DNA of 64,000 nt from a virus (taxonomy: Duplodnaviria; Caudoviricetes): positions 224,001-288,000 of the IMG/VR virus record IMGVR_UViG_3300017700_000931; one strand, 5' to 3'. The first letter of the stretch is position 1, and every line of letters starts with the position of its first letter. Shown piece by piece: positions 28,834 through 45,072 of the stretch. The translations under genes were made by a program, and so were the position numbers. The notes beneath the pieces are model-generated. The model was not told the origin of the DNA. It searched no databases and saw only the letters and a list, made by a program, of their open reading frames with translations.

Positions 28834-29367
28834 TTAGGAGAACATCAATGTATCTCCTTTCATGGTCACCTTTGCCATGTTCGTAAGGTTGTAGTTTCGG
28901 TATTGCGTTGACTTCATCTCTTTGCGTATGTCATCTTTCGCAATGGTAAGTGGTTTTCTGGTATCTTCTTTATAGTCACCACTCACTAGCACTTCTTTTT
29001 TTACTTTCATTCCCACCACGTACAATTCGTTGGTTTCGTTGTGAATTTTTAATCCATTTGTCAGGTAAGTATAGGCATTTGTTTGACCTTCACTCATTGC
29101 TTTGCTAGGGCTAATTAGCGCACCTAACAGGGCTTTACGTGCCTCTTCTAATAATGCAGTACCCTGAGTACTTTTAATGGTTTTAACATCGAGGTTTTTA
29201 AGGTATTCAATATCCTTCAGTTTTGCATTCTCATAAGAGACACCGACGTTAATGAGTGTTTTTTGTGTTTCATTTGCTTCGTTTGTGTACACAATTGAAA
29301 CGAATGAGCAACCTGTAATGTTTTTCAGGTTTCCGAATAGTGTTGTAAGTGCTTGTAGAATTTTCAT
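28834..29367 (-). CDS. Hypothetical early protein
   Basis: 177 aa, own promoter-leader module. Confidence 0.75.
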   Translation of the reverse strand: MKILQALTTLFGNLKNITGCSFVSIVYTNEANETQKTLINVGVSYENAKLKDIEYLKNLDVKTIKSTQGTALLEEARKALLGALISPSKAMSEGQTNAYTYLTNGLKIHNETNELYVVGMKVKKEVLVSGDYKEDTRKPLTIAKDDIRKEMKSTQYRNYNLTNMAKVTMKGDTLMFS

Positions 29368-29449
29368 ACCTTAGTTGTTTGACAATACAAATATACGAAC
29401 AAAGTTTGAATCCACCAAATAATTAATGAATTATATTTTTATAAAGTTA

Positions 29450-30085
29450 TTAACCATTCTTTCTTAATTCTTTTGCAATGGCTTTGAGTTGAATCATTTC
29501 AGTTGTATTCACAATACCATCACCAATATTAGTAGTGAACACCTCCAAGCCACCTTGGTTATTAGGGTTTGAGAATGTCCAACGGTGGTTTTTCGTTTCA
29601 ATAATATACAAGGTACTTGTCTTTGTTTTTTCCATTCGGCATCTACCAGTAATAACGTTTTTTATTCTGCTTTTATTTGGCTTTGCTTTAAACTTAGGGT
29701 TGAACCAAAATTCATTAATATAATCCTGTGTTTCTCTATCTACCATATAGGCTGTAAAGTTCCAACGAAAGTGACCTTTATGAATGGTTTCAAAACTTCT
29801 ATTCATTTGTGTAACGTGCATCCCTCTGAGTTGTACACCTCGTGTAAATCGTTCATTAGACTTCACCTTAGAGTAATCACCCCAACGCTTTATTGTGCCT
29901 TTAGAAATGCTCTTTAACATTCCTTCAATAGACGAAGGTGAACCAATGTTAAAAGCCATGTGGTTCATTTTGTCAGCTAAGGCAGAAATAACGTGCGGTT
30001 GTAATCCTGAATAGCACATTACGAATCTTTCAATTTCCTTTAAGAAATTTTGTTTGAAGTTGGTTACAATTTCTAGTGGTGTCAT
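29450..30085 (-). CDS. Hypothetical early protein
   Basis: 211-aa ORF. Confidence 0.7.
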   Translation of the reverse strand: MTPLEIVTNFKQNFLKEIERFVMCYSGLQPHVISALADKMNHMAFNIGSPSSIEGMLKSISKGTIKRWGDYSKVKSNERFTRGVQLRGMHVTQMNRSFETIHKGHFRWNFTAYMVDRETQDYINEFWFNPKFKAKPNKSRIKNVITGRCRMEKTKTSTLYIIETKNHRWTFSNPNNQGGLEVFTTNIGDGIVNTTEMIQLKAIAKELRKNG

Positions 30086-30091
30086 AGTGGT

Positions 30092-30511
30092 TTATTGGTT
30101 ATTTAAAAATGTGTTTAGTTCTTCTTTATTGTTTGCGTATTGGGCTTCAATCGGGTTATCGTTTGTATCCCATTCAATTCTATTTCCGTCTGAGTCAATC
30201 GGGTAAATAACCCAGAGTTTTTGTATTCTATCGTAGAAGTATTCAAAGCCTTTTTTCTGGTAGGTTTTCATTTCTTTCATGGCTATTTTTTTCAATTGTA
30301 TTTTACCCCATTTATTAGCAATATCAAAACGAACTTCTTTTTCAATATCACCAAATTGAAGTGTTAACACCTCTCCAATCCCACCAACAATTAACGCAGA
30401 GGTAATTTCTTTATTTGTTTCATTTTTAGCAACTAAAAATTTGCGACCTTCAACCTCAACAATTTTAATATTGTTATCAAGGTATTGTATTATTTTACCT
30501 TCAATTTTCAT
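30092..30511 (-). CDS. Hypothetical early protein
   Basis: 139-aa ORF. Confidence 0.65.
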   Translation of the reverse strand: MKIEGKIIQYLDNNIKIVEVEGRKFLVAKNETNKEITSALIVGGIGEVLTLQFGDIEKEVRFDIANKWGKIQLKKIAMKEMKTYQKKGFEYFYDRIQKLWVIYPIDSDGNRIEWDTNDNPIEAQYANNKEELNTFLNNQ

Positions 30512-30688
30512 GGCTATTTTTTAAGTTGAATTTGTTCACGAATACATTTTGCCATTCGTTCGAGGTGGTCTGCTTTATCCTCATCGGAGCGGTTTTGTTT
30601 GTAGGTATCGAATAAGCGTTTTTCTTCTTTCTTCAATTCCTCTAGCCGGAGTGCTTTATTGTTTCCTTTCATTTGGGTAGTTAATTTG

Positions 30689-30868
30689 TTACCAAGCCAT
30701 TACGCTATATGGGTTATAGCCTTGTGTACGTAATTCATCTCTTAGTTTAATGAATTTTTTTTCACTTACTTTAAAAACTGAGGTGTTGGTACTGGCTTCA
30801 ATGAATGTTACCTTTGGTAATATTTTTTTGAATATTGGTTCGTTTTGTTTTGCGATTAATACGTTCAT
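30689..30868 (-). CDS. Small hypothetical early protein
   Basis: Start placed at MNVLIAKQ after the leader. Confidence 0.65.
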   Translation of the reverse strand: MNVLIAKQNEPIFKKILPKVTFIEASTNTSVFKVSEKKFIKLRDELRTQGYNPYSVMAW

Positions 30869-30944
30869 GTGGTTTAGTTTATTAGTTTGACAGGACAAAT
30901 ATAAAACAATATTTGATATAAACCTAATTTTTTATGAATTATTT

Positions 30945-31014
30945 TTGAATAAAAAAAGAAAAGTCCCTAGTGTAGTTTTGGTTAGCTACGATACTAGGGA
31001 CTTTATAACCAATA
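30945..31014 (-). terminator. Long-stem terminator closing the ncRNA/tRNA transcript
   Basis: AAAGTCCCTAGT/ACTAGGGACTTT 12-bp stem plus a T-tract on minus. Confidence 0.75.
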
Positions 31015-31252
31015 AACATGAAGTAACCAGCTGCATGTATCTTTTTGCGTTGTTACGCAAATGGGAGGGGACACAAATGATAAACTACATACGTCTCATC
31101 TATCAATTGTTAATAAGTTCCGTTGTCGTACTAACAACTTCTTTATTAAGTCCCCATGTATCTTAAAACACTATCAAAGTCCCATAATTAATGACCTTTG
31201 GGTATTAGTAGACGGAACGGTCATGCGCCCTACTTTGGTAATGTTAATTTAG

Positions 31253-31324
31253 CGCACGAGGTGGGACTCGAACCCACAACTATCCGTTGAAAAGACGGTG
31301 CTTTACCAGTTAAGCTACTGTGCT
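31253..31324 (-). tRNA. Degenerate tRNA (anticodon ambiguous: Lys-UUU or Glu-UUC)
   Basis: TAGCTTAACTGGTAAAGC D-arm and GTGGG-TTCGAGT-CCCAC T-arm intact; bulged acceptor stem, 4-bp anticodon stem CCGT/ACGG, no CCA. Confidence 0.7.
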
Positions 31325-31620
31325 GGGGTTTCCCCCATTTTAGGTGTGCACACCTACTAAGGCCGTACCTTGCCTTAGTGCTACGTTTGGTCAGACGGCC
31401 ATCCAACCTAAAGGGGTGTTTGCTTGCCCACTTTTGCTATTCGGCAACCTCTGTCAACCGCCTTGTTGGGAGGTTGTACACATTATGCCGATACTAGCTT
31501 CTTTCAACCGCTTGGTACACACCGGAGCGAACTCCGAAAACCTAAGCGGTTATCATATCTATTGTTGTCACTTTATCGGGTTTGCTGGTCTTGGTAGGAC
31601 AACTCACCTTAACACCCAAC
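31325..31620 (-). ncRNA. Candidate structured ncRNA (~300 nt) upstream of the tRNA
   Basis: Own TATCTTTG promoter (~31628-31635), about 50% GC by eye, at least six stems including UUCG and GAAA tetraloops. Confidence 0.6.
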
Positions 31621-31665
31621 TGAGGAACAAAGATAAAACAAATATTTCATTCCACCAAATTATTT

Positions 31666-31857
31666 TTAATCTTTTTTAAAAATAATGAAGAACATATTTA
31701 CAAACGCCCCAACAATTCCACCAATCAACGGAATTAAAAAATTCCAGTTTGCTGGGTCATGGTTAATAATGTAATCTGCACCCTCAACAATTCCCCAAAT
31801 TGCACCTGAAATATATGCAATTGCACAAAGGAAGTGAATCAAAATGTTCATAGCCAT
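31666..31857 (-). CDS. Small 2-TM membrane protein
   Basis: 63 aa, hydrophobic. Confidence 0.6.
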   Translation of the reverse strand: MAMNILIHFLCAIAYISGAIWGIVEGADYIINHDPANWNFLIPLIGGIVGAFVNMFFIIFKKD

Positions 31858-32066
31858 ACGGTTACTTTTTTATGTTTTGATGATAACATTAGGTAGTGAC
31901 CTCGTGCCGTTGATAAGAATTACGCTTTCGCCACCTCAACGTGTGTATCCTCTACCTAGTGTTATTGTTTTAGATTACTTTTTCATAACGGGGCGTGTTT
32001 TTGGTTAATACTTTGAATAAATAATATCAGGAAACAAATATAAGTATAATATTTTAATCTACCAAA

Positions 32067-32420
32067 TTAAAATTCAAGTTTTATTTTAGTTATTAATTGG
32101 TTATCGTACATTTGTTCTTTACCCTCAGTATATTCGTATGCTTGTATAATGTATGACAACCAACTTTGTTTGTCATCAAATTCTGAGCGGTTTTCATAAT
32201 CAAAATGAACATCAATAATAGTTCCATCCAATAATGTAACACTCGTCCATTCATCAGAATCATTAAAAACTATTGTTTGTTTACATTTAATGCTAGACTT
32301 TGAATCTTTTTGGAATGTCTCCCAACTTTTATCTTCAAAATCCAAAACAAGTTCAGTACCTTTTTTTAATGTGTATTCTAATACAACACTTCTAAATCCT
32401 AAATTTAATATCGCTTTCAT
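32067..32420 (-). CDS. Hypothetical early protein
   Basis: Start placed at MKAILNLG after the hairpin-leader. Confidence 0.7.
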   Translation of the reverse strand: MKAILNLGFRSVVLEYTLKKGTELVLDFEDKSWETFQKDSKSSIKCKQTIVFNDSDEWTSVTLLDGTIIDVHFDYENRSEFDDKQSWLSYIIQAYEYTEGKEQMYDNQLITKIKLEF

Positions 32421-32823
32421 GGTTATCCGGTTAAATTGGTTATTTGATAAAGGGCATAAAGCCCTTTGGTTAACCACCCATATCCTCTGAAACCTCAGAC
32501 ATCAATGTGCCGTCTTCAAATTCTTTGCCTTCTGCAAGGGCTTCAATTTCCTCACCCTCAATAGAACGAGTAACGGCTCTTAATGCTGACAAAATTTGTT
32601 CCTTTGTTCCTGAACCAGTAATTTTAATTTGTAATTGCATATCGTTTGTTTTAGTTTGACTGATACAAATATAATACTATATTTTCAATTGACCAAATTA
32701 TTTTGAACTTATTTTATGAATTAATTTCACAACAATTGGTTGAACATAAGAAAGTGTTATAATCATTCCGCTCACAATTAAAATAAAGTACATAGGTTGA
32801 GTTTTTGATAAGGGTTTTACCCC

Positions 32824-33015
32824 TTATTCTTCTTCCTCAACATCAATAATATCGGAGGCAGAAATATCTGAAATGAAAATCTTTGGTTCTGCTTCCAGTT
32901 CACTAGCACCAACAATATTATTCATTACCTCTAAGGTGTCCTGAACCTCTGTCAAATCATTCCCACCCTCTTTAATTAACAATTGAATTTGTACGGTTAC
33001 TGTAATTGCTTTCAT
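32824..33015 (-). CDS. Small acidic early protein
   Basis: 63 aa, cassette leader. Confidence 0.7.
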   Translation of the reverse strand: MKAITVTVQIQLLIKEGGNDLTEVQDTLEVMNNIVGASELEAEPKIFISDISASDIIDVEEEE

Positions 33016-33060
33016 ATCTGGTTACTTTTATTAGTTTGATAAAGGGGTTTCCCCCTTTAT

Positions 33061-33390
33061 TTAGTTAGTCGTATAAGCAATTGAAACAACAATATATTCT
33101 TCATCGACTGTATGTGTGTTAACCTCAACCGCAACATAGAAATCACTCTCAGTTTGGGCTTCAACACATTCGTGAATAATATCAATTGGTTGGTCATAAG
33201 TTTCAAGTGTTTCTTCAATCACTCGTTCTGCTTCTGAAACGAAACCTTTTTCTAAGGTATCCTCTCTATACTGTTCTACATTTTCTGTGAAGTCAGCATC
33301 AAAGAATAATTCTAAGAGGCTTTCTTTTGTAAGTTTACCATCTTCACCGAATCGAACAATTACTAATTTTGAATTTAATGTTACTTGCAT
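33061..33390 (-). CDS. Acidic early protein
   Basis: 109 aa, cassette leader. Confidence 0.75.
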   Translation of the reverse strand: MQVTLNSKLVIVRFGEDGKLTKESLLELFFDADFTENVEQYREDTLEKGFVSEAERVIEETLETYDQPIDIIHECVEAQTESDFYVAVEVNTHTVDEEYIVVSIAYTTN

Positions 33391-33436
33391 ATCTGGTTAC
33401 TTTTTAGTTTGATATTGGGGGCAATTGCCCCCAAAT

Positions 33437-33622
33437 TTAAATACTTTCTTCAAAATTATGGTCAATAGCTTGGTCAACAATACCAGAGTCAACAACTTTA
33501 ACGCCATCAGTATTGGTTGTAATTGTACAATCAAGTTCTTCAGCAATTTTTCTCAATTGTTTTGGGGTTACTGGTTTGTCAAGTTCAACTCGTACATTTA
33601 AATAAAAAACATTCACTTTCAT
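33437..33622 (-). CDS. Small early protein
   Basis: 61 aa, cassette leader. Confidence 0.7.
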   Translation of the reverse strand: MKVNVFYLNVRVELDKPVTPKQLRKIAEELDCTITTNTDGVKVVDSGIVDQAIDHNFEESI

Positions 33623-33846
33623 ATCTGGTTACATTTTTAGTTTGATAAAAGAGGGGAATTAATTCCACCCCTTTTTGTGCTTATCCTTTCGGTTATAAGC
33701 CTTTTTGTTTTTTTGCACCATTGGGCGTACCGCTTGGTGAATTTCGTGTTGGGTGAGTTGAATTGTTTGCAGTTTCATAATTGGTTATTTTAGTTTGACA
33801 TGACAAATATAATACAATATTTCTTATCCACCAAACTTTTTTGCAA

Positions 33847-34179
33847 TTATTTTTTACTTAAATCGTAAGGCACTGCATCCAAGCCATATTCACAGGTATA
33901 TCCAATGGCTTCCAATTTCTCCACTAAGGTAGCACAAGCCTCATAAGTCATCGTATCAGTTGAGTACTTGTCTAATACTGCTTTAACCTCGTCCGGCAAG
34001 TTGTCGTAATCCTCAAATAAATCGGTACTTTGGTTAAATAACTCCAACCATTGTTTGGTTGTATATAAACCATATTTATTTCTACATTCGTCAATACTTA
34101 GATTGAATCTAATTGACGCAATATTCAAATATTTTCTGTAGGTTGAAATTGCTGGTAATTTGTCCTCTATTTGGTTCAT
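33847..34179 (-). CDS. Hypothetical early protein
   Basis: 110 aa, cassette leader. Confidence 0.7.
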   Translation of the reverse strand: MNQIEDKLPAISTYRKYLNIASIRFNLSIDECRNKYGLYTTKQWLELFNQSTDLFEDYDNLPDEVKAVLDKYSTDTMTYEACATLVEKLEAIGYTCEYGLDAVPYDLSKK

Positions 34180-34222
34180 ACTGGTTACATTTATTAGTTT
34201 GATAAGGGGTTAACCCCCTTGC

Positions 34223-34435
34223 TTATAATCTCTCAATTATAAGCATTGACTTTTTGAATTCATGGTTACACCCATCACATGCCATACTGAAATAAATTTC
34301 ATTATCGTGACCCAATAATTTGTATGCTTTTTTTAAATCTGGGTCAGCCTCCTGAATTTGGTTTTTACTGGAATGTGCCAATGGTTCGTTGTCGGTTGTA
34401 CGCACCATGAAAGAATTGCATTTTGGACAGTTCAT
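34223..34435 (-). CDS. Small zinc-ribbon protein
   Basis: MNCPKC...ACDGCNHEF; start after the leader. Confidence 0.7.
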   Translation of the reverse strand: MNCPKCNSFMVRTTDNEPLAHSSKNQIQEADPDLKKAYKLLGHDNEIYFSMACDGCNHEFKKSMLIIERL

Positions 34436-34482
34436 AAAGTTGTTTATTAGTTTGATATTTGTGGGGCAATTGCCCCACAAAT

Positions 34483-34767
34483 TTAATAAACACAAATTTC
34501 CTCCATCTTAATATCCTCATAGAAATCTGAATCCTCAGCCTCAATTAAAACGTGTGCTGACAATACAACGGTTGTGCTTAATTGAAGACTTTCAACTGTA
34601 ACAATTTTCACCGGACAAGAATAATGTTCTTTCAATGCCAAAACTAGTTTTGGCTCAACAATTTCTCTTAGGTTAATTTTTTTAGTATCGTTGACTTCAC
34701 CTAAGTCAATAACACCAACATTTTTTTGACCTTCAATCGCAATGTTTACAAAGATTCTTCTTTTCAT
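34483..34767 (-). CDS. Hypothetical early protein
   Basis: Start placed at MKRRIF. Confidence 0.7.
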   Translation of the reverse strand: MKRRIFVNIAIEGQKNVGVIDLGEVNDTKKINLREIVEPKLVLALKEHYSCPVKIVTVESLQLSTTVVLSAHVLIEAEDSDFYEDIKMEEICVY

Positions 34768-34870
34768 AATGGTTACGTTTATTAGTTTGACAATACAAAT
34801 ATAATACAATATTTGATATAAACCAAATTATTTGTAATTAATTTTGATAAAGGGGTTTCCCCCTTTGTGG

Positions 34871-35380
34871 TTATCTGTAATACTCCCTTACAGTATAATC
34901 AATGGTTTGCTTGAACGCATCCAATTCCTTTTGCATCTCGTTTAGCTTAGCCAGTTTTTTCAATTCAGCATCCAAATCAATGGTTTTATCCAAATCGTAC
35001 TCAGTGACTAGTTTATCGTAATCCTCGACGCTAATCAATAAGCCGTCTTTAATTTGACCAATTGCAATTCTTCGCTCAAAGTATTCTGTATATGCAGTGC
35101 TTGGACGAACGTCATAAGAACCACCGAATTTGCATATCTTGAAATTAATATACATACATCCATGAGCAAAGGTAATATACCCAACGGAACGCTCACCTTT
35201 TTCATCCTTTACAATAAGAGGTAATAACGAATCAGCACTTTTAACCAGTACGTTACTTGCTTTAACAATTTTTTTGCCTAGGAAAAATACTAAGGCGGGT
35301 AGAATTTGTTTTAGGGTTTCTTTAATTGCGGTATTCAATTCCTTGTTACCTTCAATCACAATGTTAATAGGTGTTTTCAT
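34871..35380 (-). CDS. Hypothetical early protein
   Basis: 169 aa, promoter-leader module. Confidence 0.75.
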   Translation of the reverse strand: MKTPINIVIEGNKELNTAIKETLKQILPALVFFLGKKIVKASNVLVKSADSLLPLIVKDEKGERSVGYITFAHGCMYINFKICKFGGSYDVRPSTAYTEYFERRIAIGQIKDGLLISVEDYDKLVTEYDLDKTIDLDAELKKLAKLNEMQKELDAFKQTIDYTVREYYR

Positions 35381-35537
35381 AATTTAGTGGTTTAGTTTAT
35401 TAGTTTGACTGGTACAAATATAATACTATATTTTTAATCTACCAAATAAAAAGTGAATTATTTTTAAATAAAAAAACCCCATCCAGACCGGACAGGGTTT
35501 TCCTCGTGAAATTGTCGTCAAACTATAACCACGGAAA

Positions 35538-35732
35538 TTATTTTGTTTTGTTATGGTTGTCCATAACTTGTTTATACTCTTTCATCAGGTCGTCGTGCAT
35601 ACCCTCATTGAGCGGTTTTAACTTAGCAAAAAAGAATCCACAATTTGCCTCCGCAGGTGTTTTGCTACCAGACTTTATTGCTCTCATTCCGGCTCTAATT
35701 TTATCAATACTCATTTCCTCGGTTGTCTTCAT
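35538..35732 (-). CDS. Small hypothetical protein with the late-type upstream motif
   Basis: 64 aa; ATATTTAT at 35753-35760; terminator at ~35471-35500. Confidence 0.65.
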   Translation of the reverse strand: MKTTEEMSIDKIRAGMRAIKSGSKTPAEANCGFFFAKLKPLNEGMHDDLMKEYKQVMDNHNKTK

Positions 35733-36010
35733 AGTGGTTTATTGGTTTGTTGATAAATATAAGACTATATAAATAAAGTTGGGTCCGTAACTGGGTAGGG
35801 TTGTTACGGACCCTCTTTATTAGTCAAACTAAAAACTACTTAAAGTATTTTGCGTAATATGGTCTACGTTTTTGTTTGTGCTTGTATTCCTTTACCAATT
35901 GTGGCAACACAATTCGTTTAGGTAATACGGCACTGAATTGAACAGGTGAAAATAATAACAAGAATGCGAAAATAATTGCTTTCATAATAATTTGGTTTTT
36001 GTGGTTAATA

Positions 36011-36265
36011 TTAATTCATTGCAAGGTTGTAAGCCTTAGAAATCTTGGTGAGGTTTTCATTAATAATACGAATATCATTCTTAATATCATTAATGGTAAT
36101 ATCACCCGTACCTTTAAGCCCATCAAACATTTTGGTGGCTTCAATTAACATTCGGTTACCATGTCGTTTTGCGACCATTAAAGCGAATAAATCCATATCC
36201 ATCAAAAAATGTTCTGGGGTCTGGTTTGTCTCTTCCAGAAACAACTCAGTTAATTGGTTTGCCAT
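36011..36265 (-). CDS. Hypothetical early protein
   Basis: Start placed at MANQLT. Confidence 0.65.
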   Translation of the reverse strand: MANQLTELFLEETNQTPEHFLMDMDLFALMVAKRHGNRMLIEATKMFDGLKGTGDITINDIKNDIRIINENLTKISKAYNLAMN

Positions 36266-36337
36266 ATTGGTTAATTTAGTTTGACTGGATAAAGGTAAGA
36301 ACAACTTTTCAATATTCCAAATTATTCTTACCTTTTT

Positions 36338-36736
36338 TTATGCTTTTTTCAATTTCAGTCGTTGAATGTTATTTGTGTGCTTATCTTTGAAGCGTCTCCA
36401 ACCAAGACCAGACCAATAAGCATAACATTCAACAAAATCATCCTTTGCCTCATCTTTATAGGCTTGTGGGTCGAGTTCTTTTAACACCTCTCTGAATTCA
36501 TCAAACTCTGCTTTAGAAATTCCATCAGTATATTGAATTGGGTCTGTGTCAGTTGGGAGTGTCCCGAATGGGCATTCTTTGTCATCCTCAATGCTTTCAA
36601 CATTATCAGACAAATCATGGTCAAGTTGTGTTTGAAGTCCTTTTTTTGCTTTTGAAAGCGTTTCTTCTCTTGTCGCAGTTTCATCAACAATAACACGAGT
36701 TAAAAGAGTTACATGTACTAGTTTGGCTACTTTCAT
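36338..36736 (-). CDS. Hypothetical early protein
   Basis: 132 aa, cassette leader. Confidence 0.7.
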   Translation of the reverse strand: MKVAKLVHVTLLTRVIVDETATREETLSKAKKGLQTQLDHDLSDNVESIEDDKECPFGTLPTDTDPIQYTDGISKAEFDEFREVLKELDPQAYKDEAKDDFVECYAYWSGLGWRRFKDKHTNNIQRLKLKKA

Positions 36737-36787
36737 ATTTGGTTACTTTTAGTTTGATAATGGTGGGGCGGTTAAGCCCCCACCAAT

Positions 36788-37171
36788 TTACTCTTCTTCT
36801 TCAATAGCTTCTAACCCTGCATCCTCACCATGCACTCCAATAGCAAACCAAATTTGTTCCATTGTGGCTTCATTTTTTAAAGCGTTGTGTAGAACTTTTT
36901 GTGCCTCTTCATCAGTGCATTTGAATTTCGCTTTAACATCAGCAACACTCCAAAGGTTATCAGTATAGAATCCGGCTTTTCTCAATAGTTCTTTAGCCAA
37001 TTCAACATCACTTTTTACCACATCGAATTCAGTGTTTTTCACTTTAATCCAAATATCTTTTCTTGGGTGTTTAACACTCATCAAAGTGTCAGAAAATTCC
37101 AGTGGAAGCCCTTGTGGAAATACAACACCGAATTTTTTACTTACTTTTTGTTTTTTTAGAATAACTTTCAT
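36788..37171 (-). CDS. Hypothetical early protein
   Basis: Start placed at MKVILKK. Confidence 0.7.
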   Translation of the reverse strand: MKVILKKQKVSKKFGVVFPQGLPLEFSDTLMSVKHPRKDIWIKVKNTEFDVVKSDVELAKELLRKAGFYTDNLWSVADVKAKFKCTDEEAQKVLHNALKNEATMEQIWFAIGVHGEDAGLEAIEEEE

Positions 37172-37214
37172 AGTATGTGTTTTAGTTTGACGATACAAAT
37201 ATAATACTATATTT

Positions 37215-37694
37215 CTAATTAACCAAATTTTTTATAATCTTTTTTACACTTTTTTTTATTTGGGGAATTTGGTTACGTCGGAATCTAGGATTCCAGCCCG
37301 TTTCACATAAGGCAATAGATTCCATTGTCGACCAAGAAATATTGGTTATTGCAGTATATCCAGACCAACCACTGTTGGCTAAATCTTTATAGACTCCTTT
37401 AGAGTCCATATAGCAAGTGCCTAATTTAACGAAACAATGGGCTAAATACATACCCTCTGAATTGAATTCAGCTAATGTGGGTTTGTTGTTCGTTTCTAAT
37501 ATTTTATTGAATTTATCCTCAGTACAATTACGACCTAACCAAACAATTTCGGCTTTATATCCGGCTTTGCAAAGTTCCTTTGCTAGTAAATAAGCAACAA
37601 TACCACATCCACCTGCATTCAGGTTAAAATAATTTCCTTCAAGTTCATCAGGGAGTAGTACGTTAAGTTTGGTTAAGACTTTTTTGGTTACCAT
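37215..37694 (-). CDS. Possible papain/transglutaminase-like Cys-His-Asp protein
   Basis: LNAGGCGIVAYLL...AHCFVK...YMDSKG. Confidence 0.55.
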   Translation of the reverse strand: MVTKKVLTKLNVLLPDELEGNYFNLNAGGCGIVAYLLAKELCKAGYKAEIVWLGRNCTEDKFNKILETNNKPTLAEFNSEGMYLAHCFVKLGTCYMDSKGVYKDLANSGWSGYTAITNISWSTMESIALCETGWNPRFRRNQIPQIKKSVKKIIKNLVN

Positions 37695-37741
37695 ATTTGG
37701 TTAGGTTTTTGATAAATGGGGGTATTGCTACCCCCATTCTT

Positions 37742-38554
37742 TTATTTGAAACGTTTCAAAATGTCCTTAACGCTTTCGCTTTTCAGGGCAATGTACAACT
37801 CAATCAATTTGGTTGCTTCGTCGCTTTTGTCCTCACGTTTGTCAAGGGCTTCAACAACCTCTTTCAATTTTTGCATTGGGCTTTTTGCTGTCAAAGTAGC
37901 AACGTGTTTTGTTGTCGCTTTTTTCGGTGCTTTGCCAGTTTCAACTGCCGTTGCTTTTGCTGAATCAATTGCCTCGGTAACAATTTTCAATTGCTCATCA
38001 GCATTTTTTGTTTGCTTCACAATTTGAACAACTGTACCACCAGAAATCAAACCTTCAATTACGAAGTTTTTAATTTGTTTCCCAACGTTGGCAAGTGACA
38101 ACAAGTTGTAAATGTGTGGAACTGACTTCGCAATTTTTTGTGAAATCTCTTCTGGTTTGTAGTGCATTGCAACAAGGCGTTTAATTGCCTCAGCTTGCTC
38201 CACTTCATTCAGGGCTTTTTGCCCCGTACCAGTCACAATCATTGTGAAAATCTGGTCTTCCTCATTCCCTGTGTAAGGCGCAACCTCAACGTAAGGAATT
38301 GACTCACCTCTTTTCAAAAGAATCTGAATCGCTGCGAAACGTCTGTGACCGTCAACCAATTCGTAGGTATCTTCACCACGAGTTTTTTTAGCCTTCAATG
38401 GAACTTCCAGACCAATTGAGGCAATTGAATCTGCTAGGGCTTCCAAATCACCCATGTCAAGACGCACGTTGAATCCCTCACGTACCACAATGTTGCGTGG
38501 GTCAACAAGCATTGTATCTTTTCTTTTTGTAACTAATACTGCTCCTTTTTTCAT
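37742..38554 (-). CDS. ParB/Srx-like N-terminal domain protein with HTH
   Basis: GFNVR...LADSI...GLEVPL...YELVDGHRRFAAI; LNEVEQAEAIKRL. Confidence 0.9.
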   Translation of the reverse strand: MKKGAVLVTKRKDTMLVDPRNIVVREGFNVRLDMGDLEALADSIASIGLEVPLKAKKTRGEDTYELVDGHRRFAAIQILLKRGESIPYVEVAPYTGNEEDQIFTMIVTGTGQKALNEVEQAEAIKRLVAMHYKPEEISQKIAKSVPHIYNLLSLANVGKQIKNFVIEGLISGGTVVQIVKQTKNADEQLKIVTEAIDSAKATAVETGKAPKKATTKHVATLTAKSPMQKLKEVVEALDKREDKSDEATKLIELYIALKSESVKDILKRFK

Positions 38555-38872
38555 AACTTTTTTGGTTTTTAATTAATAATGATGTGACAAATATAATAGG
38601 ATATTTTTAATTGACCAAATAATATTATAATTATTTTCGTCAAAGTTATTAACAATTTAGAAATTCGTAGTGTTTTTGCCGGGTTCAGGAGCATTCTTTT
38701 TTATTACTAGGAACGCATTGCCGAAAATATTGCTAGTGAATCCAACAATAATATGTTCACCCTTTGGAGTGTCAACAACCAAATTTCCTTTTGGGTCAAT
38801 CGAAAGTTGTGAAAGTTCTTTGTTATGGTTCATAATAATATTATTTTGATAAAGGGCTTTAAAGCCCTTTGG

Positions 38873-39130
38873 TTAAGTGTGAATTACAAATCTGCTCTCT
38901 GACCCATAATACGAATATAATAACGGGTAAGTATTGCTAATCTCACTCAAATATCTCACTTCAATGTTAATGGTTGCACCATCCTTGCAAATTGCTTTAT
39001 ACTTGTTGTGCAAGTGTTCCAAGGCTAATTGAATTAAGTTTACATCGGTTTCCTTTAACACCGTATCAAATACAACTGGTTTCCCATCGGTTTTAACTTC
39101 AACACTTACTTTTAGAATATCGTTTTTCAT
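38873..39130 (-). CDS. Hypothetical early protein
   Basis: 85 aa, cassette leader. Confidence 0.7.
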   Translation of the reverse strand: MKNDILKVSVEVKTDGKPVVFDTVLKETDVNLIQLALEHLHNKYKAICKDGATINIEVRYLSEISNTYPLLYSYYGSESRFVIHT

Positions 39131-39179
39131 AGTTGGTTACATTCATTGGTTTGATAAGGGGTATTAACCCCTATTATTA

Positions 39180-39620
39180 TTATTTTACATTATATTCAAT
39201 AATTCTTAAACTTTTGAATGGCGCACCAGTAACCGACATACCACCACTCGAATTTGTTTTAAGAATTTCAAGGTGACAAGGAATAAAACCAGTTGACTTA
39301 CCTACAATAAATCTTCTCTTTTCTCCGTATTTGTCAACAACCTCAACTCTGTGACCTTCTTTACCAATTAATTCAGGTATTAACTGGGACTGACTTCTCC
39401 AACCAGTTTTATCATTTCTATCACTAGCAATTTTTACTAAATTAGTATAATTGGTGTATGCTTTTTTTGTACCTTTTTTCTTTGGAATTAAATCCTCCAT
39501 TCCAAGTTCTTTGGCTAAGGCAATGGTTCTATCCTGACATACATCAAAACCAAGGCAAGTGAATCCACTACCACAATTTAATACAAATAACTGTTGTTCT
39601 TTATTTATTGAATTTAACAT
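39180..39620 (-). CDS. Conserved-looking phage hypothetical protein
   Basis: Start placed at MLNSINK; C-terminal RRFIVGKSTGFIPCHLE. Confidence 0.75.
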   Translation of the reverse strand: MLNSINKEQQLFVLNCGSGFTCLGFDVCQDRTIALAKELGMEDLIPKKKGTKKAYTNYTNLVKIASDRNDKTGWRSQSQLIPELIGKEGHRVEVVDKYGEKRRFIVGKSTGFIPCHLEILKTNSSGGMSVTGAPFKSLRIIEYNVK

Positions 39621-39876
39621 ATCTAATAGTTTTAGTTTGACAGGACAAATATAATACAATATTTGATATAAACCAAATTATTTGTATTCTTTTTTAAAAT
39701 AAGTTTTTAACTCAGCTAATGTGAATAACTTTTGGTATTGTGTACATTGTGTTCTATAACCCCCATCCACCGGAATGACGTTATCAGACTTTAACCATTT
39801 GTTGAATTCTTTCATAGGATAAAGGAGGTCTTTCGACCTCCCTTGTAACTTGGTAATGAATTTGTACATTCCATAC

Positions 39877-40188
39877 CTAAGCCTTGTTTTTAATCTCAGT
39901 CCATTCACCGTTCCACTCTGTGCCGTTCAAATACCATGTACCTTGACGTTGGCTAATTCTTACGTTAGGTAGGCCGTTCAAACGCTCCTTAGTGGTGTTA
40001 CTTTTCCAACCTGCATTTGTAATGCTTAGTTTGGACTTTGTTAGACTGGTCAATTCTCTTTTTGCAATTACATTGCCATGCAATAAAAGTGTTGTAACTT
40101 TATCAGAAACTTCAACACTCATGTTCGCTTTTTTGAAAGGAGTCCCAGTCAAAAATGCCTCAATACTTTCTTCAGTAATTTTTTTCAT
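39877..40188 (-). CDS. Hypothetical early protein
   Basis: Start placed at MKKITEES; AGWKSNTTKERLNG. Confidence 0.75.
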   Translation of the reverse strand: MKKITEESIEAFLTGTPFKKANMSVEVSDKVTTLLLHGNVIAKRELTSLTKSKLSITNAGWKSNTTKERLNGLPNVRISQRQGTWYLNGTEWNGEWTEIKNKA

Positions 40189-40285
40189 AATGGTTACGTT
40201 TATTAGTTTGACAATACAAATATAATACAATATTTGATATAAACCAAATTATTTGTAATTATTTTTGATAAAGGGTTTTACCCCC

Positions 40286-40543
40286 TTACCATGCTTCCCC
40301 GTCACCAATAAATAATTTACCATTCTGGAAACTTGGCTCATATTCTTTATGGTCTGCAACCATATCACCAGTTTCATAGAATGTACTTAAATCAGCTAAT
40401 TCTAATTCGTGACAAACACAAACAACAAAGGTATCCCCACCATGTATAGGGTGTTCAACAAATTGAATTTTCTGACCTAATGAATTAACCATTTCACTGT
40501 AAACAGTTGGGTTCAATTCCATTAATTTTTTATAGTTTAACAT
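40286..40543 (-). CDS. Hypothetical early protein
   Basis: Start placed at MLNYKKL. Confidence 0.65.
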   Translation of the reverse strand: MLNYKKLMELNPTVYSEMVNSLGQKIQFVEHPIHGGDTFVVCVCHELELADLSTFYETGDMVADHKEYEPSFQNGKLFIGDGEAW

Positions 40544-40577
40544 GGTATAGAATTTAGTTTGACAATAGAATATTATT

Positions 40578-40778
40578 TTAACTACATTGACAAGTTCCAT
40601 AATCACAACAACAAGTACTACTATATACTTGACAAGTGTTACACCAATTCATTTCACCAGTGTGGCATAAGTGACATATTTTAGTATGGTCATGGCATGC
40701 CTCACATAAATCAGGGTTACCATCATGTGAATTATTAACAATTGTTAATTCAATATTACAGTCTTCGCAGTGATTCAT
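40578..40778 (-). CDS. Small Cys/His-rich metal-binding protein
   Basis: Several CxxC pairs in 66 aa. Confidence 0.65.
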   Translation of the reverse strand: MNHCEDCNIELTIVNNSHDGNPDLCEACHDHTKICHLCHTGEMNWCNTCQVYSSTCCCDYGTCQCS

Positions 40779-40891
40779 ATTGGTTTAGTTTGACGATACA
40801 AATATAATACTATATTTCTAATTGACCAAATAATATTATAATTATTTTCTTATTTATACTCATTCTAAATTAAAAAATAAATGCAAAAAAG

Positions 40892-40997
40892 TTTGGTGGA
40901 ACGAAATATTATGCTTACCTTTGTCTTGTCGGTTGGAAACAGAGACAGGTCAGGTGCGACAATCCTGAGAGAGTAGACTCCGTCACGCCCTATAACC
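40892..40997 (+). ncRNA. Promoter plus candidate small RNA, copy 1 (antisense to the array)
   Basis: TTTGG...TACCTTTG promoter; shares GAGACRGGTC and TGAGAGAGTAGACTCC with copy 2; no ORF. Confidence 0.5.
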
Positions 40998-41129
40998 AAA
41001 TCCACCCATTTTAAAAAAAGCTACAAAGGTAATACTTAATTTTGATATATCCTAATTATTTAACATTTACTTATTAACACAAAAAAAGGGGTAGTTGTTG
41101 AAAACTACCCCCTCAATAATTAGGAATTC

Positions 41130-42038
41130 TTAAATTTTAATTCCGGCGTAATCTAAGGCGAATGCCAGACTTTCTTGGTTGGTACGGTAGTTTGTACCAA
41201 CTGTCAAACTCTCAATTCGACCATTCTCACGTTTTGGTGCTGACTTGTCGTGCGTTGTCCAACGGGTTACTCCCGAATGAAGTCCCCAAAGGTTTTGCCC
41301 CTTTTGGTTCATCTCAATTTCAATGGCGTTGTATAATGACTCCATCGCATTCATTGAGCGGGTTGACTTGTCAATCAATTCGCTTGTCATTGTACGGTCA
41401 AAGCCTAAAATGTGCTTTACCATTTTGTTAGCCAATTCTTTGCTAACTTTGTTCGACTGGAACGCATTGTAAATCTCAATCATTCTCAGGCTCTCAGAAA
41501 GTGACAATTCAATCAATGAAGGAATCGTAGCCATTTTTTCAACCAAGTTAGCTGAATGTCTCCATTTAGCCTGACCAGAACGGTAGAAACGAAAGAACTG
41601 GTTTTGACATGACATTGTTAAGTCACCAATACCAACTGACAATCCGGTGCTACCGTCGTTAGAGTCAATAATGGTCACATAACGTTTAATGCTATCCTCA
41701 CCAACTTTTGACATACCGTCAACGGCTAATTGAATAAACACTTTACGACCACCATCAAGCGCACCTGCTTTTGAAACTGACAACTCACCGAATTTGTTCA
41801 TTCCTGTTAATACCAGTTCAACCAATTCGTCGTTTTGACTCACCACATACGAACCTTTAACAGTATTCAGAATCTCACCGCTCTTGTCATTGTATAGACC
41901 GAAATAATCGCTCTTTACATTATCCACGCTTTGAACACCCTCTGGTGAGGTAATAATACGTGGAGCAACCAATGGCAATTTTTCAATGCGGAAATCTAAA
42001 CCGAACTGAGCTAAAATTTGTTGTGCTTTTTCTTTCAT
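41130..42038 (-). CDS. DUF932-family (phage/plasmid-like) protein
   Basis: YVVSQNDE, AGALDGGRKVFI, NDGSTG, CQNQF, NLWGLHSGVT motifs. Confidence 0.88.
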   Translation of the reverse strand: MKEKAQQILAQFGLDFRIEKLPLVAPRIITSPEGVQSVDNVKSDYFGLYNDKSGEILNTVKGSYVVSQNDELVELVLTGMNKFGELSVSKAGALDGGRKVFIQLAVDGMSKVGEDSIKRYVTIIDSNDGSTGLSVGIGDLTMSCQNQFFRFYRSGQAKWRHSANLVEKMATIPSLIELSLSESLRMIEIYNAFQSNKVSKELANKMVKHILGFDRTMTSELIDKSTRSMNAMESLYNAIEIEMNQKGQNLWGLHSGVTRWTTHDKSAPKRENGRIESLTVGTNYRTNQESLAFALDYAGIKI

Positions 42039-42208
42039 AATAAGGAGTTAATTTAAGTTAGTAATTTATTTGACTGGTACAAATATAAGATAGTATTTCC
42101 GAATAAACAAATATATTATAGTATATTTTCAATTTATTTTTAAAATCCTAACGTTTATGCGGGTTTGAGTTAGTGAAATAAAATAATACGAAAATATATG
42201 CTTTTTTA

Positions 42209-42312
42209 TTTGGTAGATTGAAATAAAGTTCTTATCTTTGTTTTGTCAGTGGTGAATAACTGAGACGGGTCGACCAGAAAAGTTGAGAGAGTAGACTCCA
42301 CTGTGCCTTATA
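42209..42312 (+). ncRNA. Promoter plus candidate small RNA, copy 2
   Basis: TTTGG...TATCTTTG promoter; same conserved blocks as copy 1. Confidence 0.5.
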
Positions 42313-42372
42313 TTTTTTTACACATGAATTTTCGACCTGTATAATATTTGACATGACCAAATAATTTACACA

Positions 42373-43016: not shown

Positions 43017-43253
43017 TTACTGTGACCCCCAAGCACAATAATGTTCTTCATTAACAAAAAATCCTTTAGATAGGTCTTCACCAAAATCAACGAAATTATC
43101 TTTAATATGTTCTATGGAAAAGAAGTATTGTTTAACCGGATTAGATTCATTAATTACATTATAATATAATTTACCATTAAGTGATTTAATAAATCTAGTT
43201 CCAGCTGGACAAGATGGTAAAGCCATATATAGTATTACTACATCAGGTAGCAT
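43017..43253 (-). CDS. LPxCP-family paralog 1
   Basis: ALPSCPAGTRFIKSLNGKLYYN...KQYFFS. Confidence 0.8.
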   Translation of the reverse strand: MLPDVVILYMALPSCPAGTRFIKSLNGKLYYNVINESNPVKQYFFSIEHIKDNFVDFGEDLSKGFFVNEEHYCAWGSQ

Positions 43254-43474
43254 TATAGGGATATGTATGGAGTATTATCATCGAAGAAGAAGTCATAGTT
43301 ATTGAGGATTTCTTCTCTGGTGAATGAGTAGTCTTTAAAGTTGTTATTGATTCTATCTTCATCGGATAGGATGAGATAATAGAATGATTGGTTAAGAGAT
43401 GCTTTGAAGAACATTCCGGCTGGGCAAGATGGGAGGTCTTTGAGCAGTTTAATATTTTGAGGGAATTGCATCAT
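43253..43474 (-). CDS. LPxCP-family paralog 2
   Basis: DLPSCPAGMFF...KDYSFTREEI. Confidence 0.8.
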   Translation of the reverse strand: MMQFPQNIKLLKDLPSCPAGMFFKASLNQSFYYLILSDEDRINNNFKDYSFTREEILNNYDFFFDDNTPYISL

Positions 43475-43764
43475 AAGCTACAGAATGTATTAAACCATTT
43501 GGTATGAATATCTGCTGCATCTAGTGTATTTCCAAACGTTAAAAATTCAGCACTAAAATTATGTGAGAAGAATGTTGTTATTATGTCTGGCGTAATGATT
43601 GTGGATAATTCATTAATTGAAAAAAAGTATTGTTTTATTTCATTTGAACCCTCATTATAGTAGAAGTTACCATCGATGGTTTTAATGAATGATGTACCTG
43701 CTGGGCAGTTAGGTAGTTCTTTAACTAGGGTTAATATGCTAGGTTGTATTTTAAATTGCATCAT
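43471..43764 (-). CDS. LPxCP-family paralog 3
   Basis: ELPNCPAGTSFIKTIDG. Confidence 0.8.
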   Translation of the reverse strand: MMQFKIQPSILTLVKELPNCPAGTSFIKTIDGNFYYNEGSNEIKQYFFSINELSTIITPDIITTFFSHNFSAEFLTFGNTLDAADIHTKWFNTFCSL

Positions 43765-44060
43765 AAGTTTGACCAACTCCAATTATCGGCAATATGTTTG
43801 AGAAAGCGTTCATGTGAAATATTACAATGCGTTGTATGGTGATTATTATATGCAGCATATGTAACTATTGTTGTAAAAAATGATTCTGTTACGTTTGTAC
43901 TAAGAGACTTTAATACTTCATCAATTGTAAATATATAATCCTTAATATCATTAGATGATTCATTAAAATAGAATTTATTATCTAATGATAAATAGAACTT
44001 TGTACCAACCGGACAAGATGGTAGAGACTTAAATAATATGAGTATATGAGGTAATGTCAT
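43761..44060 (-). CDS. LPxCP-family paralog 4
   Basis: SLPSCPVGTKFYLSLDN. Confidence 0.8.
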   Translation of the reverse strand: MTLPHILILFKSLPSCPVGTKFYLSLDNKFYFNESSNDIKDYIFTIDEVLKSLSTNVTESFFTTIVTYAAYNNHHTTHCNISHERFLKHIADNWSWSNL

Positions 44061-44365
44061 TCGAGGTGTAGCCAATTGCTATAGTAAGTGCGCCAAATTG
44101 CTTTATAATCTTCTCGACCAGATACGGTTTGATAAAACTCCATATTTTCATGAGTATCTTTAAATACAAAGAATGTTTTATCTAATATGGGTGACATGGC
44201 CATTAGGATTTCTTCTATTGTGAATACATATTGCTTGGTTGAATCCTCTGGGGTATTATAATACTGACTACCATCGAATGACTTAATGAACTTAGTGCCT
44301 ACTGGACAAGATGGAAGGTTCCTGTGCAATACTAGAATATGTGGTATGTATTTAGGTCTAATCAT
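44057..44365 (-). CDS. LPxCP-family paralog 5
   Basis: NLPSCPVGTKFIKSFDG. Confidence 0.8.
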   Translation of the reverse strand: MIRPKYIPHILVLHRNLPSCPVGTKFIKSFDGSQYYNTPEDSTKQYVFTIEEILMAMSPILDKTFFVFKDTHENMEFYQTVSGREDYKAIWRTYYSNWLHLE

Positions 44366-44622
44366 TATAGTGTATGATTAAAGAGTGTATCCATTATAGT
44401 AGATGAGACAATATAAGTTTTACCGAATGGTATGAAGAAATCTGGATTAGTTAGTATTTCTTCTCTAGAGAATATGTATTGTTTTTCTGATTGGGATGTT
44501 TCGTTTGTTATGTTATAGAAGAATTGCCCATCTAGGGTTATTTTGAAGATGGTTAATTTAGGGCAGCATGGCAAATCCTTGACCAATAAGGTTTCTGTGA
44601 AGGATATATCTCGTGTATTCAT
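44365..44622 (-). CDS. LPxCP-family paralog 6
   Basis: DLPCCPKLTIFKITLDG. Confidence 0.8.
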   Translation of the reverse strand: MNTRDISFTETLLVKDLPCCPKLTIFKITLDGQFFYNITNETSQSEKQYIFSREEILTNPDFFIPFGKTYIVSSTIMDTLFNHTL

Positions 44623-44661
44623 TGTTTTGTTGATGTTTGTGGTGTTATAGAAGAATAATGG

Positions 44662-45072
44662 TTATTTTAAGAAGGCAGTATGGGAAATCTGTATTCCAGA
44701 ATTAAAGCCAACACTTAATGAGTGTGACTTATTTTTTGTTTGATTAGGTTCATCCTCATATTCATCCCATTTAATATCATCGCTCATATGAAATGACTCA
44801 GGGTATCTAATCATTCGTTCCTTTATATCAGGGAATATTCTTTCCCAATCCGTTAGTACGCATCTGAACTTATAATGAATTAATGCCCCATGAAAGAAGA
44901 AGTCTGGATTATCTATTACCTCTTGTATTGTGAATGAATATTCTTTTATATTAGCTTCATCATCCGGCATGACAAGTGTATAGTGTTTTTCATCAAGGCT
45001 AAGGTTGAATTGGCTTAACCTAGGACAATTCGGTAGGCTTTTTAATAGCGTTATAGTTTTATCCAGCATCAT
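44662..45072 (-). CDS. LPxCP-family paralog 7
   Basis: SLPNCPRLSQFNLSLDE. Confidence 0.8.
   Translation of the reverse strand: MMLDKTITLLKSLPNCPRLSQFNLSLDEKHYTLVMPDDEANIKEYSFTIQEVIDNPDFFFHGALIHYKFRCVLTDWERIFPDIKERMIRYPESFHMSDDIKWDEYEDEPNQTKNKSHSLSVGFNSGIQISHTAFLK

Follow-up and report, generated by a model that had tools for sequence, protein, structure and literature searches.

In this study, we asked why about 13 kb of the genome of an uncultured phage repeats a similar promoter and leader again and again ahead of small, mutually unrelated genes, and what these repeats do. The region lies on the minus strand of a 64,000-nt stretch of DNA (the window), which comprises bases 224001–288000 of the 362,532-bp IMG/VR virus record IMGVR_UViG_3300017700_000931; its features are collected in Table 1. 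According to IMG/VR, the record is complete and has direct terminal repeats; its GC content is 32.7%. The region is probably a hyperplastic early-gene region of a T4-like Bacteroidota jumbo phage, built of equivalents of the promoter–stem-loop (PeSL) cassettes of T4-like phages. Comparison with related phages shows single genes gained, lost and moved by recombination inside the repeats.

Promoters were scanned for with the pattern TTTG-N18-21-TAnnTTTG. The genome had 72 such sites, and the densest cluster was on the minus strand at 28–42 kb of the window, where twelve -7 boxes ended at the positions given in Table 1. Two more promoters were variants, one with TTAGG at -33 (-7 box at 30896) and one with TACCTTTA at -7 (36290). 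An original prediction had listed 14 promoters, and all were recovered no more than 3 nt from the positions given there, together with extra ones at 31628 and 28026 (minus strand) and at 40923, 42240 and 42459 (plus strand). Their assignment to the Bacteroidota primary-sigma type agrees with the match to the Bacteroidota/Flavobacteria sigma-A consensus. The sigma-A -7 box of Flavobacterium psychrophilum occupies positions -12 to -5, and 5′ untranslated regions (5′UTRs) in that species have a median length of 24 nt (PMC9723704). This geometry places the predicted +1 on the G of GTCAAACTAA and gives the promoter units predicted 5′UTRs of 16–30 nt (median, 21 nt).

At no more than 1 mismatch, GTCAAACTAA was found 27 times in the window versus 8.4 ± 2.8 times in shuffled sequences, and none of 100 shuffles reached 27. 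Its 11 exact minus-strand copies all lay between 30882 and 40794, and 17 of the 23 copies of TCAAACTAA in the whole genome fell inside the 13-kb region. A shared leader had been predicted behind every promoter; an exact GTCAAACTAA directly follows 10 of the 14, and the other four differ. Deviant leaders are GTCAAATAA behind P42080 (promoters are named by their -7 position), GTCAAACAACTAA behind P29388 and CATCATTATTAATTAAAAACC behind P38588, which precedes the ParB-like gene; P32035 drives non-coding sequence. The eleventh exact copy (40554–40563) stands ahead of an 84-amino-acid (aa) gene that has no promoter or hairpin of its own.

Base preferences in 22 leader units were A at -12 (100%), -13 (77%), -11 (82%) and -3 (59%), and T at -1 (91%). 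The leaders contained 5.8% G and 20.9% C, versus 10.1% and 9.8% in 353 other phage genes, and the ensemble free energy of positions -22 to +18 was -1.29 kcal/mol in leader units versus -2.81 kcal/mol in other genes (Mann-Whitney P = 1e-4). In Flavobacterium johnsoniae, start sites depend, independently of a Shine-Dalgarno sequence, on A-3, A-6, A-12, A-13 and low structure (PMC6847099). The repeats fit these determinants in having A at -3 and at -12/-13 and in being little structured, which is consistent with the common translation leader that had been proposed. GGAG-like words preceded only 5% of phage genes, and no Shine-Dalgarno sequence was present at the 3′ end of the motif. The other phage genes have a generic A-rich start pattern lacking a Shine-Dalgarno sequence, and C-containing leader boxes were found at 6% elsewhere in the phage; thus, these boxes are special to the promoter-linked leaders.

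A second fixed leader family, CATCATTAATTAAAACCAACCA-NN-ATG, was observed outside the window, at 293–318 kb of the genome (plus strand), behind about 10 consensus promoters of the opposite arm, spaced 2–3 kb apart. The ParB promoter unit inside the module (38555–38619) is of this leader type.

Another type of unit, missed by the original prediction, consists of a hairpin and a leader with no promoter. Eleven such units were found, and two more hairpins lie directly upstream of full promoters, giving a module total of 13. The order within a hairpin unit is stop codon, GC-rich hairpin, (T)TATCAAA(CTAA), A-rich spacer, (GT)AACCA and ATG. The hairpins are of the GGGG-loop-CCCC type, with energies from -7 to -19 kcal/mol, and 12 of the 22 strong hairpin-TATCAAA sites of the genome are on the minus strand at 32449–40270. 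Their stems vary in sequence with pairing retained, which points to selection on structure. From the foot of the hairpin to the ATG there are about 18–27 nt, near the 5′UTR length of the promoter units. A classical terminator scan called none of the hairpins on the minus strand because their U tract is short (fewer than 5 T in 8). The DUF932 gene, by contrast, ends with a canonical terminator.

A ParB search in IMG/VR returned no relative, and megablast of the 13-kb region against GenBank phages gave zero matches. DUF932 homologues, of which 1178 proteins had E ≤ 1e-40, led to IMG/VR contigs L012–L016 (51–62% aa identity). On one strand, L012 and L013 carried 40 and 29 consensus promoters within 15–21 kb, and the whole records had 66 and 54 plus-strand promoters, respectively. 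When viral, metagenome and genome collections were scanned for the exact motif, most matches were single ones at about chance level (by our estimate, approximately 70 expected for 17 fixed bases in 596 Gb), and the scans were of use only for a few multi-copy contigs. Closer relatives were REL, a 12.5-kb contig (L167) binned in a Bacteroidota metagenome-assembled genome (70–83% nucleotide identity; DUF932, 85% aa identity); L197 and L198, contigs from two runs that are collinear with the window (81–95% nucleotide identity) and have a ParB in its 90%-identity protein cluster; and L194–L196, from three runs, with a DUF932 gene 94–97% identical at the DNA level. The gene content of the module differed in every relative compared. 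The GTCAAACTAA leader was kept in lineages lacking gene DNA homology (JABAO metagenomic contigs, 37–38% GC), L012 and L013 had a different fixed leader, GTCTAATTA(TT)AAAACA, behind nearly all promoters, and L015 and L016 had further variants. This indicates that a fixed leader from the predicted +1 is a property of the clade and that its sequence is lineage-specific.

Recombination products were observed directly in these relatives. L197 and L198 lack window positions 35414–32036, a block of 3.38 kb with 11 genes. The promoter at the L197 junction corresponds to P35415 up to the -33 box and to P32035 from the spacer onwards; with its halves coming from these two promoters, the crossover is therefore placed in their shared TTTGGTAGATTAAAA core. 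This junction was present in contigs from two runs. REL keeps homologues of two genes from the block, which suggests that the 3.38-kb difference is a deletion in the L197 lineage. The junction after DUF932 is different in L194–L196, which skip about 840 bp present in the window: a composite hairpin-TTTTATCAAA-promoter-GTCAAACTAA unit comes immediately behind the gene, and next to it stands an allele of the 40188 gene with 74% identity. The orthologous ParB gene has a hairpin unit ahead of it in L197–L200, whereas the window and REL have a promoter unit there.

REL has a collinear backbone with different genes in seven slots, and its copy of the 35380 cassette is translocated to a place between DUF932 and the homologue of 40540. 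The 127- and 132-aa genes of the window (36338–37171), which are separated by a hairpin and leader, correspond in REL to one ORF of 191 aa (L167 5365–5940); this unit therefore appears to split the coding region or to have been lost from it. L012 and L013 (DUF932, 92% aa identity) share 14 homology blocks, five of them in a different order, and most blocks extend from within one promoter to the promoter or leader that follows. Taken together, the hybrid promoter, the promoter/hairpin swap, the replaced and translocated cassettes and the reshuffling between L012 and L013 are in line with the predicted diversification by recombination between repeats. Swap breakpoints had also been expected to lie in the repeats, and this stood in part: 12 of 32 BLAST boundaries fell inside repeat units, versus a coverage of 15.6% (P = 0.002), and the other 20 fell outside. 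Within 35 nt of a gene end were 24 of the 32.

Positions 34758–34866 and 40179–40287 are 95% identical over 109 nt, ahead of unrelated genes 5.4 kb apart. The promoters of cassettes 40188, 39620 and 34767 form one subfamily with P30896 (92–98% identical), and none of these three cassettes has a homologue on the REL contig. Most paralogous promoter pairs in the window are only about 61% identical; therefore, there is no general homogenisation. Wholesale concerted evolution of the promoters within the genome was thus ruled out, near-identity being limited to the one subfamily.

The carrier is an uncultured T4-like jumbo phage, its T4-likeness being read from a gp23-type major capsid gene (PF07068, E 3e-62, match at genome 212812–213534). 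Four genes contain a sigma-70 region 2, and no RNA polymerase beta-type subunit was detected in the genome; a search for T7-type RNA polymerase gave no match, its control also being silent. Together, these findings mark a T4-like jumbo phage that most likely uses the host core polymerase throughout, and the capsid gene and the four sigma-70-like genes suggest a cascade in the T4/SPO1 style with host-sigma early promoters.

From these features, we infer the start sites, early timing, attenuation and translation role of the leader as follows. Host RNA polymerase with the primary sigma factor would start at about 14 near-consensus TTTG-N20-TAnnTTTG promoters, with +1 at the G of GTCAAACTAA. Every cistron, promoter- or hairpin-led, would receive the same 16–30-nt leader, A/C-rich, G-poor and unstructured, which would serve as a strong Shine-Dalgarno-independent start region. 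The GC hairpins with short U tails after stop codons would probably attenuate read-through or stabilise and insulate cistrons, so that a single promoter could supply between one and five genes in graded amounts. Promoter, hairpin and leader are directly repeated at intervals of 0.2–1.5 kb, and homologous recombination between these copies would therefore delete, insert, replace and move single-gene cassettes.

Several points weigh against this cassette model. Some breakpoints are at bare gene ends with no repeat (e.g., 30518 and 41130), the positions of BLAST boundaries are only approximate, and repeats make up most of the intergenic space in any case. The A-rich rule leaves the C-containing leader boxes (TCAAACTAA and AACCA) unexplained. 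The hairpins fail the terminator scan, so that "attenuator" is a guess at their role; the start sites, the early timing and what the hairpins do are all predicted; and the relatives compared are metagenomic contigs. The repeats might accordingly be alike for expression only, as optimal promoter and start regions, with rearrangements arising by illegitimate or other routes that end in intergenic DNA. Orthologous promoters of the window and REL are 67–84% identical, about equal to the backbone, and this fits such an explanation, as do the divergence of most paralogous pairs without wholesale homogenisation and the 20 boundaries outside repeat units, some at bare stop codons. We nevertheless consider it unlikely in view of the crossover inside the TTTGGTAGATTAAAA core of the L197 hybrid promoter, the enrichment of boundaries in repeat units and the 92–98%-identical promoters ahead of unrelated cassettes that are absent from the REL contig. 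Less likely again is that the hairpin and TATCAAACTAA units are start sites of a phage polymerase or sigma factor, or RNA-processing sites, instead of attenuators. The distance from hairpin foot to ATG, close to the 5′UTR length of promoter units, the interchange of hairpin and promoter ahead of ParB and the presence of four sigma-like genes would agree with this. However, the units show no separate conserved -35/-10-like pair, no phage RNA polymerase was detected (with the silent T7-type control noted above), and hairpins also occur upstream of full promoters, as expected of terminators. A site-specific, integron-like cassette system or a small mobile element (miniature inverted-repeat transposable element or homing element) would account for single-gene units with a conserved junction sequence, and inverted boxes, GTCAAAC and GTTTGAC, do flank one gene. 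Both are very improbable and were rejected: a scan of ten flanking ORFs revealed neither an integrase nor a recombinase domain, target-site duplications and terminal inverted repeats were absent, and the mapped crossover is in a promoter spacer, off any fixed core site.

Compatible with the cassette model, and possible though not probable, is that the leader is chiefly an operator, at which a trans regulator would bind GUCAAACUA and AACCA and shut off or jointly stabilise the early cistrons. The regulator could be an antisense anti-leader RNA from 3′UTRs or a RegA/RegB-like protein. In T4, RegA and RegB control early mRNAs through shared start-region motifs. Here, likewise, a short motif close to the start codon is common to many early cistrons and might offer a handle for post-transcriptional shut-off; the difference is that an antisense RNA box would read this candidate handle, and that box is no more than a lead. 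The restriction of C-containing boxes to promoter-linked leaders (6% elsewhere) would suit an operator. The transcript strand carries two copies of UAGUUUGAC, the leader start in reverse complement (35832–35823 and 35526–35518), each with a stop codon immediately upstream and a strong terminator immediately downstream. Of GTCAAACTA, the entire genome has three plus-strand sites, and these copies account for two of them. Box 2 (GGUUAUAGUUUGAC) is complementary to the two conserved leader boxes; over 24 leaders, its predicted duplex energy averaged -13.7 kcal/mol versus -6.1 kcal/mol for shuffled boxes. A similar layout was seen in L012 (3127), L197 (3379), REL, L041 and L042, and it was matched to the contig's own leader variant in L041 over 16 nt (shuffle P < 0.002), in L042 over 14 nt (P = 0.018) and in L012 over 10 nt. 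Against this, the match length is not significant in L012, in REL or in the window itself (P = 0.12), the boxes were chosen post hoc, box 1 is lost in L197, and there are only one or two boxes per region; a regulator protein has not been identified, homologues of RegA/RegB not having been searched for. Shuffled leaders were used as the control, since TCAAACT reads identically backwards and makes reversed or complement controls invalid. Only tentatively, then, might the leader be the target of anti-leader RNA boxes (UAGUUUGAC preceded by GGUUA) that lie in 3′UTRs before terminators and co-vary with the leader variants GTCAAACTA, GTCAAATTA and GTCTAATTA. If true, this would be an RNA-based master switch, or a device pairing 5′ and 3′ ends, for the whole early set in a phylum lacking Shine-Dalgarno control.

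Under the cassette model, the closest known system is the PeSL, in which a strong host-sigma promoter, a stem-loop with a G-run and a C-run and a translation signal stand ahead of ORFans in hyperplastic regions; PeSLs mediate indels and replacements, and their consensus differs between T4-like lineages (PMC2839356, PMC4122927). Two further marks of PeSLs are a Shine-Dalgarno sequence at the 3′ end of the motif and mini-circles excised between adjacent copies. The analogy, drawn in the original prediction, proved apt. The module shares with the PeSLs of RB49/phi1, T4/PST and KVP40/nt-1 near-consensus host primary-sigma promoters with such stem-loops and a translation signal, direct repeats ahead of ORFans in a hyperplastic region (here, 17 of 23 TCAAACTAA copies in 13 kb), indels and replacements between relatives with junctions in the repeats, and a T4-type carrier (here, a gp23-type capsid gene). 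It differs in that the promoter is of the Bacteroidota -33/-7 type and not -35/-10; that there is no Shine-Dalgarno sequence, a fixed 16–30-nt leader beginning instead at the predicted +1, as expected for Bacteroidota; that hairpin and promoter are separable, with 11 hairpin-only units, whereas the PeSL stem-loop is within or next to the promoter; and that the host belongs to another phylum and the genome is 362 kb.

For SPO1, a host-takeover module of 26 small early genes is described (Stewart et al. 1998, as cited in PMC6873191). Our module is likewise a compact block of many small, presumably early genes with predicted strong host-sigma promoters in a phage encoding sigma factors. In SPO1, by contrast, the genes have demonstrated shut-off functions and lie in the terminal redundancy; the present module is internal in the record, and its repeated units are demonstrably recombinogenic. 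Integron cassettes are similar as promoter-less single ORFs arranged head to tail with a conserved, hairpin-bearing junction element; they differ from the units here, most of which have their own promoter, which recombine apparently by homology and which have no integrase in the ten flanking ORFs. No description of such arrays in Bacteroidota phages was found in the literature searched.

With this module, PeSL-type "plug-and-play" shuffling, known from T4-like phages of enterobacteria and Vibrio, would also take in a large clade of Bacteroidota phages, most of them uncultured; the breadth of this clade is indicated by the 1178 DUF932 homologues and by the promoter arrays in many sampled relatives. 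A crossover inside a promoter is seen here at base level, and one and the same gene can be preceded by a hairpin module in one phage and by a promoter module in another. The repeat also appears to be a natural, compact and portable expression unit, with a strong promoter, a defined (predicted) +1, a 21-nt leader lacking a Shine-Dalgarno sequence and a predicted insulating hairpin; it might be used in Flavobacteria and the rest of the Bacteroidota, for which few genetic tools exist. The ORFs of the module constitute a candidate list for screens of early phage functions.

Table 1. Features of the early module and of its phage (window coordinates unless marked as genome)
Feature	Position	Strand	Remark
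Whole hyperplastic early module (probable)	28834..42111	-	About 33 small ORFs, 14 sigma-A-type promoter units, 13 GC hairpins
Promoter (-7 G 42080) + 37-nt leader starting GTCAAATAA	42039..42111	-	Ahead of DUF932
DUF932 gene, 302 aa	41130..42038	-	PF06067, E 1e-19
Canonical intrinsic terminator after DUF932	41085..41114	-	12-bp stem, then T7
Promoter (-7 G 40799) + GTCAAACTAA leader	40779..40830	-	Ahead of 66-aa ORF
Composite hairpin, TTTATCAAA, promoter (-7 G 40217), GTCAAACTAATAAACGTAACCATT leader	40189..40287	-	Ahead of 103-aa Kyano_Gp96-like ORF
Promoter (-7 G 39646) + leader	39621..39677	-	Ahead of 146-aa phrog_10759 ORF
Hairpin (AGGGGTTAATACCCCT) + TATCAAACCAA leader	39131..39172	-	Ahead of 85-aa ORF
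Hairpin + TATCAAAATAA leader	38834..38869	-	Ahead of 58-aa ORF
Promoter (-7 G 38588) + second leader type CATCATTATTAATTAAAAACC	38555..38619	-	Ahead of ParB; hairpin unit instead in L197–L200
ParB-like gene, 270 aa	37742..38554	-	HTH_ParB, phrog_1033
Hairpin (-18 kcal/mol) + ATCAAAAACCTAACCAAAT leader	37695..37739	-	Ahead of 159-aa ORF
Promoter (-7 G 37196) + GTCAAACTAA leader	37172..37227	-	Ahead of 127-aa ORF
Hairpin + TTATCAAACTAAAAGTAACC leader	36737..36785	-	Ahead of 132-aa ORF; absent in REL
Promoter variant (TACCTTTA, -7 at 36290) + AGTCAAACTAAATTAACC leader	36266..36321	-	Ahead of 84-aa ORF
Anti-leader box 1 (candidate), TTTTTAGTTTGACT on transcript strand	35823..35835	-	After stop codon, before terminator with 11-bp stem
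Anti-leader box 2 (candidate), GGTTATAGTTTGAC	35518..35531	-	Complementary to both leader boxes; before terminator; conserved in REL and L197
Promoter (-7 G 35415) + leader	35381..35446	-	Ahead of 169-aa ORF; upstream half in L197 hybrid promoter
Composite hairpin + promoter (-7 G 34796) + leader	34768..34866	-	Ahead of 94-aa ORF; twin of 40189–40287
Hairpin (-19 kcal/mol) + ATCAAACTAA leader	34436..34482	-	Ahead of 70-aa ORF
Hairpin + ATCAAACTAATAAATGTAACC leader	34180..34220	-	Ahead of 110-aa ORF
Promoter (-7 G 33804) + leader	33779..33835	-	Ahead of 39-aa ORF
Hairpin + ATCAAACTAAAAATGTAACC leader	33623..33675	-	Ahead of 61-aa ORF
Hairpin + TATCAAACTAAAAAGTAACC leader	33391..33434	-	Ahead of 109-aa ORF
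Hairpin + TATCAAACTAATAAAAGTAACC leader	33016..33060	-	Ahead of 63-aa ORF
Weak hairpin + TTATCAAAAACTCAACC leader	32794..32823	-	Ahead of 31-aa ORF
Promoter (-7 G 32666) + AGTCAAACTAA leader	32641..32697	-	Ahead of 56-aa ORF
Hairpin + ATCAAATAACCAATTTAACC leader	32421..32467	-	Ahead of 117-aa ORF
Promoter (-7 box end 32035) lacking shared leader	32035..32067	-	Downstream half in L197 hybrid promoter
3.38-kb block, 11 genes, between direct promoter repeats P35415/P32035	32036..35414	-	Absent from L197 and L198
Promoter (-33 TTAGG, -7 G 30896) + GTCAAACTAA leader	30869..30927	-	Ahead of 59-, 52-, 139- and 211-aa ORFs
Promoter (-7 G 29388) + GTCAAACAACTAAGGT leader	29368..29419	-	Ahead of 177-aa ORF
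T4 gp23-type capsid gene	genome 212812-214359		
Four sigma-70 region-2 genes	genome 323321-323533, 95820-96029, 349598-349774, 204029-204208		

The approximately 33 ORFs (31–302 aa) have no detectable similarity to one another, as had been supposed, and the DUF932 and ParB-like genes noted beforehand were both recovered (PF06067, E 1e-19; HTH_ParB, E 2.5e-10, and phrog_1033, E 1e-39). Among 30 ORFs scanned, 24 had no Pfam or PHROG match above the cut-off. A Pfam match above the cut-off or a named PHROG was obtained for four (DUF932, the ParB-like gene, Kyano_Gp96 at 39877–40188 and phrog_10759 at 39180–39620), and two others matched unnamed PHROGs; only ParB among the matched ORFs carries a known function. 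An Atlas look-up of three ORFs assigned no function. The matches do not support the host-takeover or anti-defence role suggested in the original prediction, a role that may be proposed from where the genes lie and from their type of promoter, with SPO1 as the model (PMC6873191).

The 146-aa phrog_10759 protein is 47–49% identical to proteins of Chi-like, phiTE(-like) and KaOmega enterobacterial phages, and its gene is an accessory gene that has travelled widely, present here in a phage of Bacteroidota type. The 159-aa protein (37215–37694, minus strand) had a confident Atlas model (predicted template modelling score, pTM, 0.84), and its nearest named clusters were phage YunG-like, transglutaminase-like and glutamine-deamidase folds (template modelling score approximately 0.5); a YunG/transglutaminase-like fold is therefore a lead from the model.

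Just upstream of the module, at 43017–46063 (minus strand), is a tandem array of about 10 overlapping paralogous genes (73–136 aa), whose proteins share an N-terminal L..LPxCPxGT motif and are 35–57% identical to one another; homologous stretches (66–93% identity) were found in L193 and L194. At 30930–32067 (minus strand), promoters 32035 and 31628 drive about 1 kb in which the sole credible ORF has 63 aa. This stretch contains a tRNA-Lys(UUU) at 31252–31323, and parts of it are conserved at 81–94% in L197 and REL. In Rfam, only the tRNA-Lys reached the gathering threshold, and nothing credible was found at E ≤ 1 around DUF932 or at 30.9–32.1 kb.

A family of promoter-driven RNAs of about 60–70 nt with an almost invariant AGUAGACUCC box was also observed. 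Two of them flank DUF932 in the window, antisense to the early arm (40928–40995 and 42245–42313, plus strand). The window and relatives (L012, L013, L042, L141, L201, L205, L207 and L047) contained 26 distinct copies, several per genome, of which 24 were aligned. These RNAs had no Rfam match, and RNAalifold on the MAFFT alignment gave no consensus fold; by eye, they show a central hairpin with the compensatory changes CAGG/CCUG, CGAC/GUUG and CAC/GUG.

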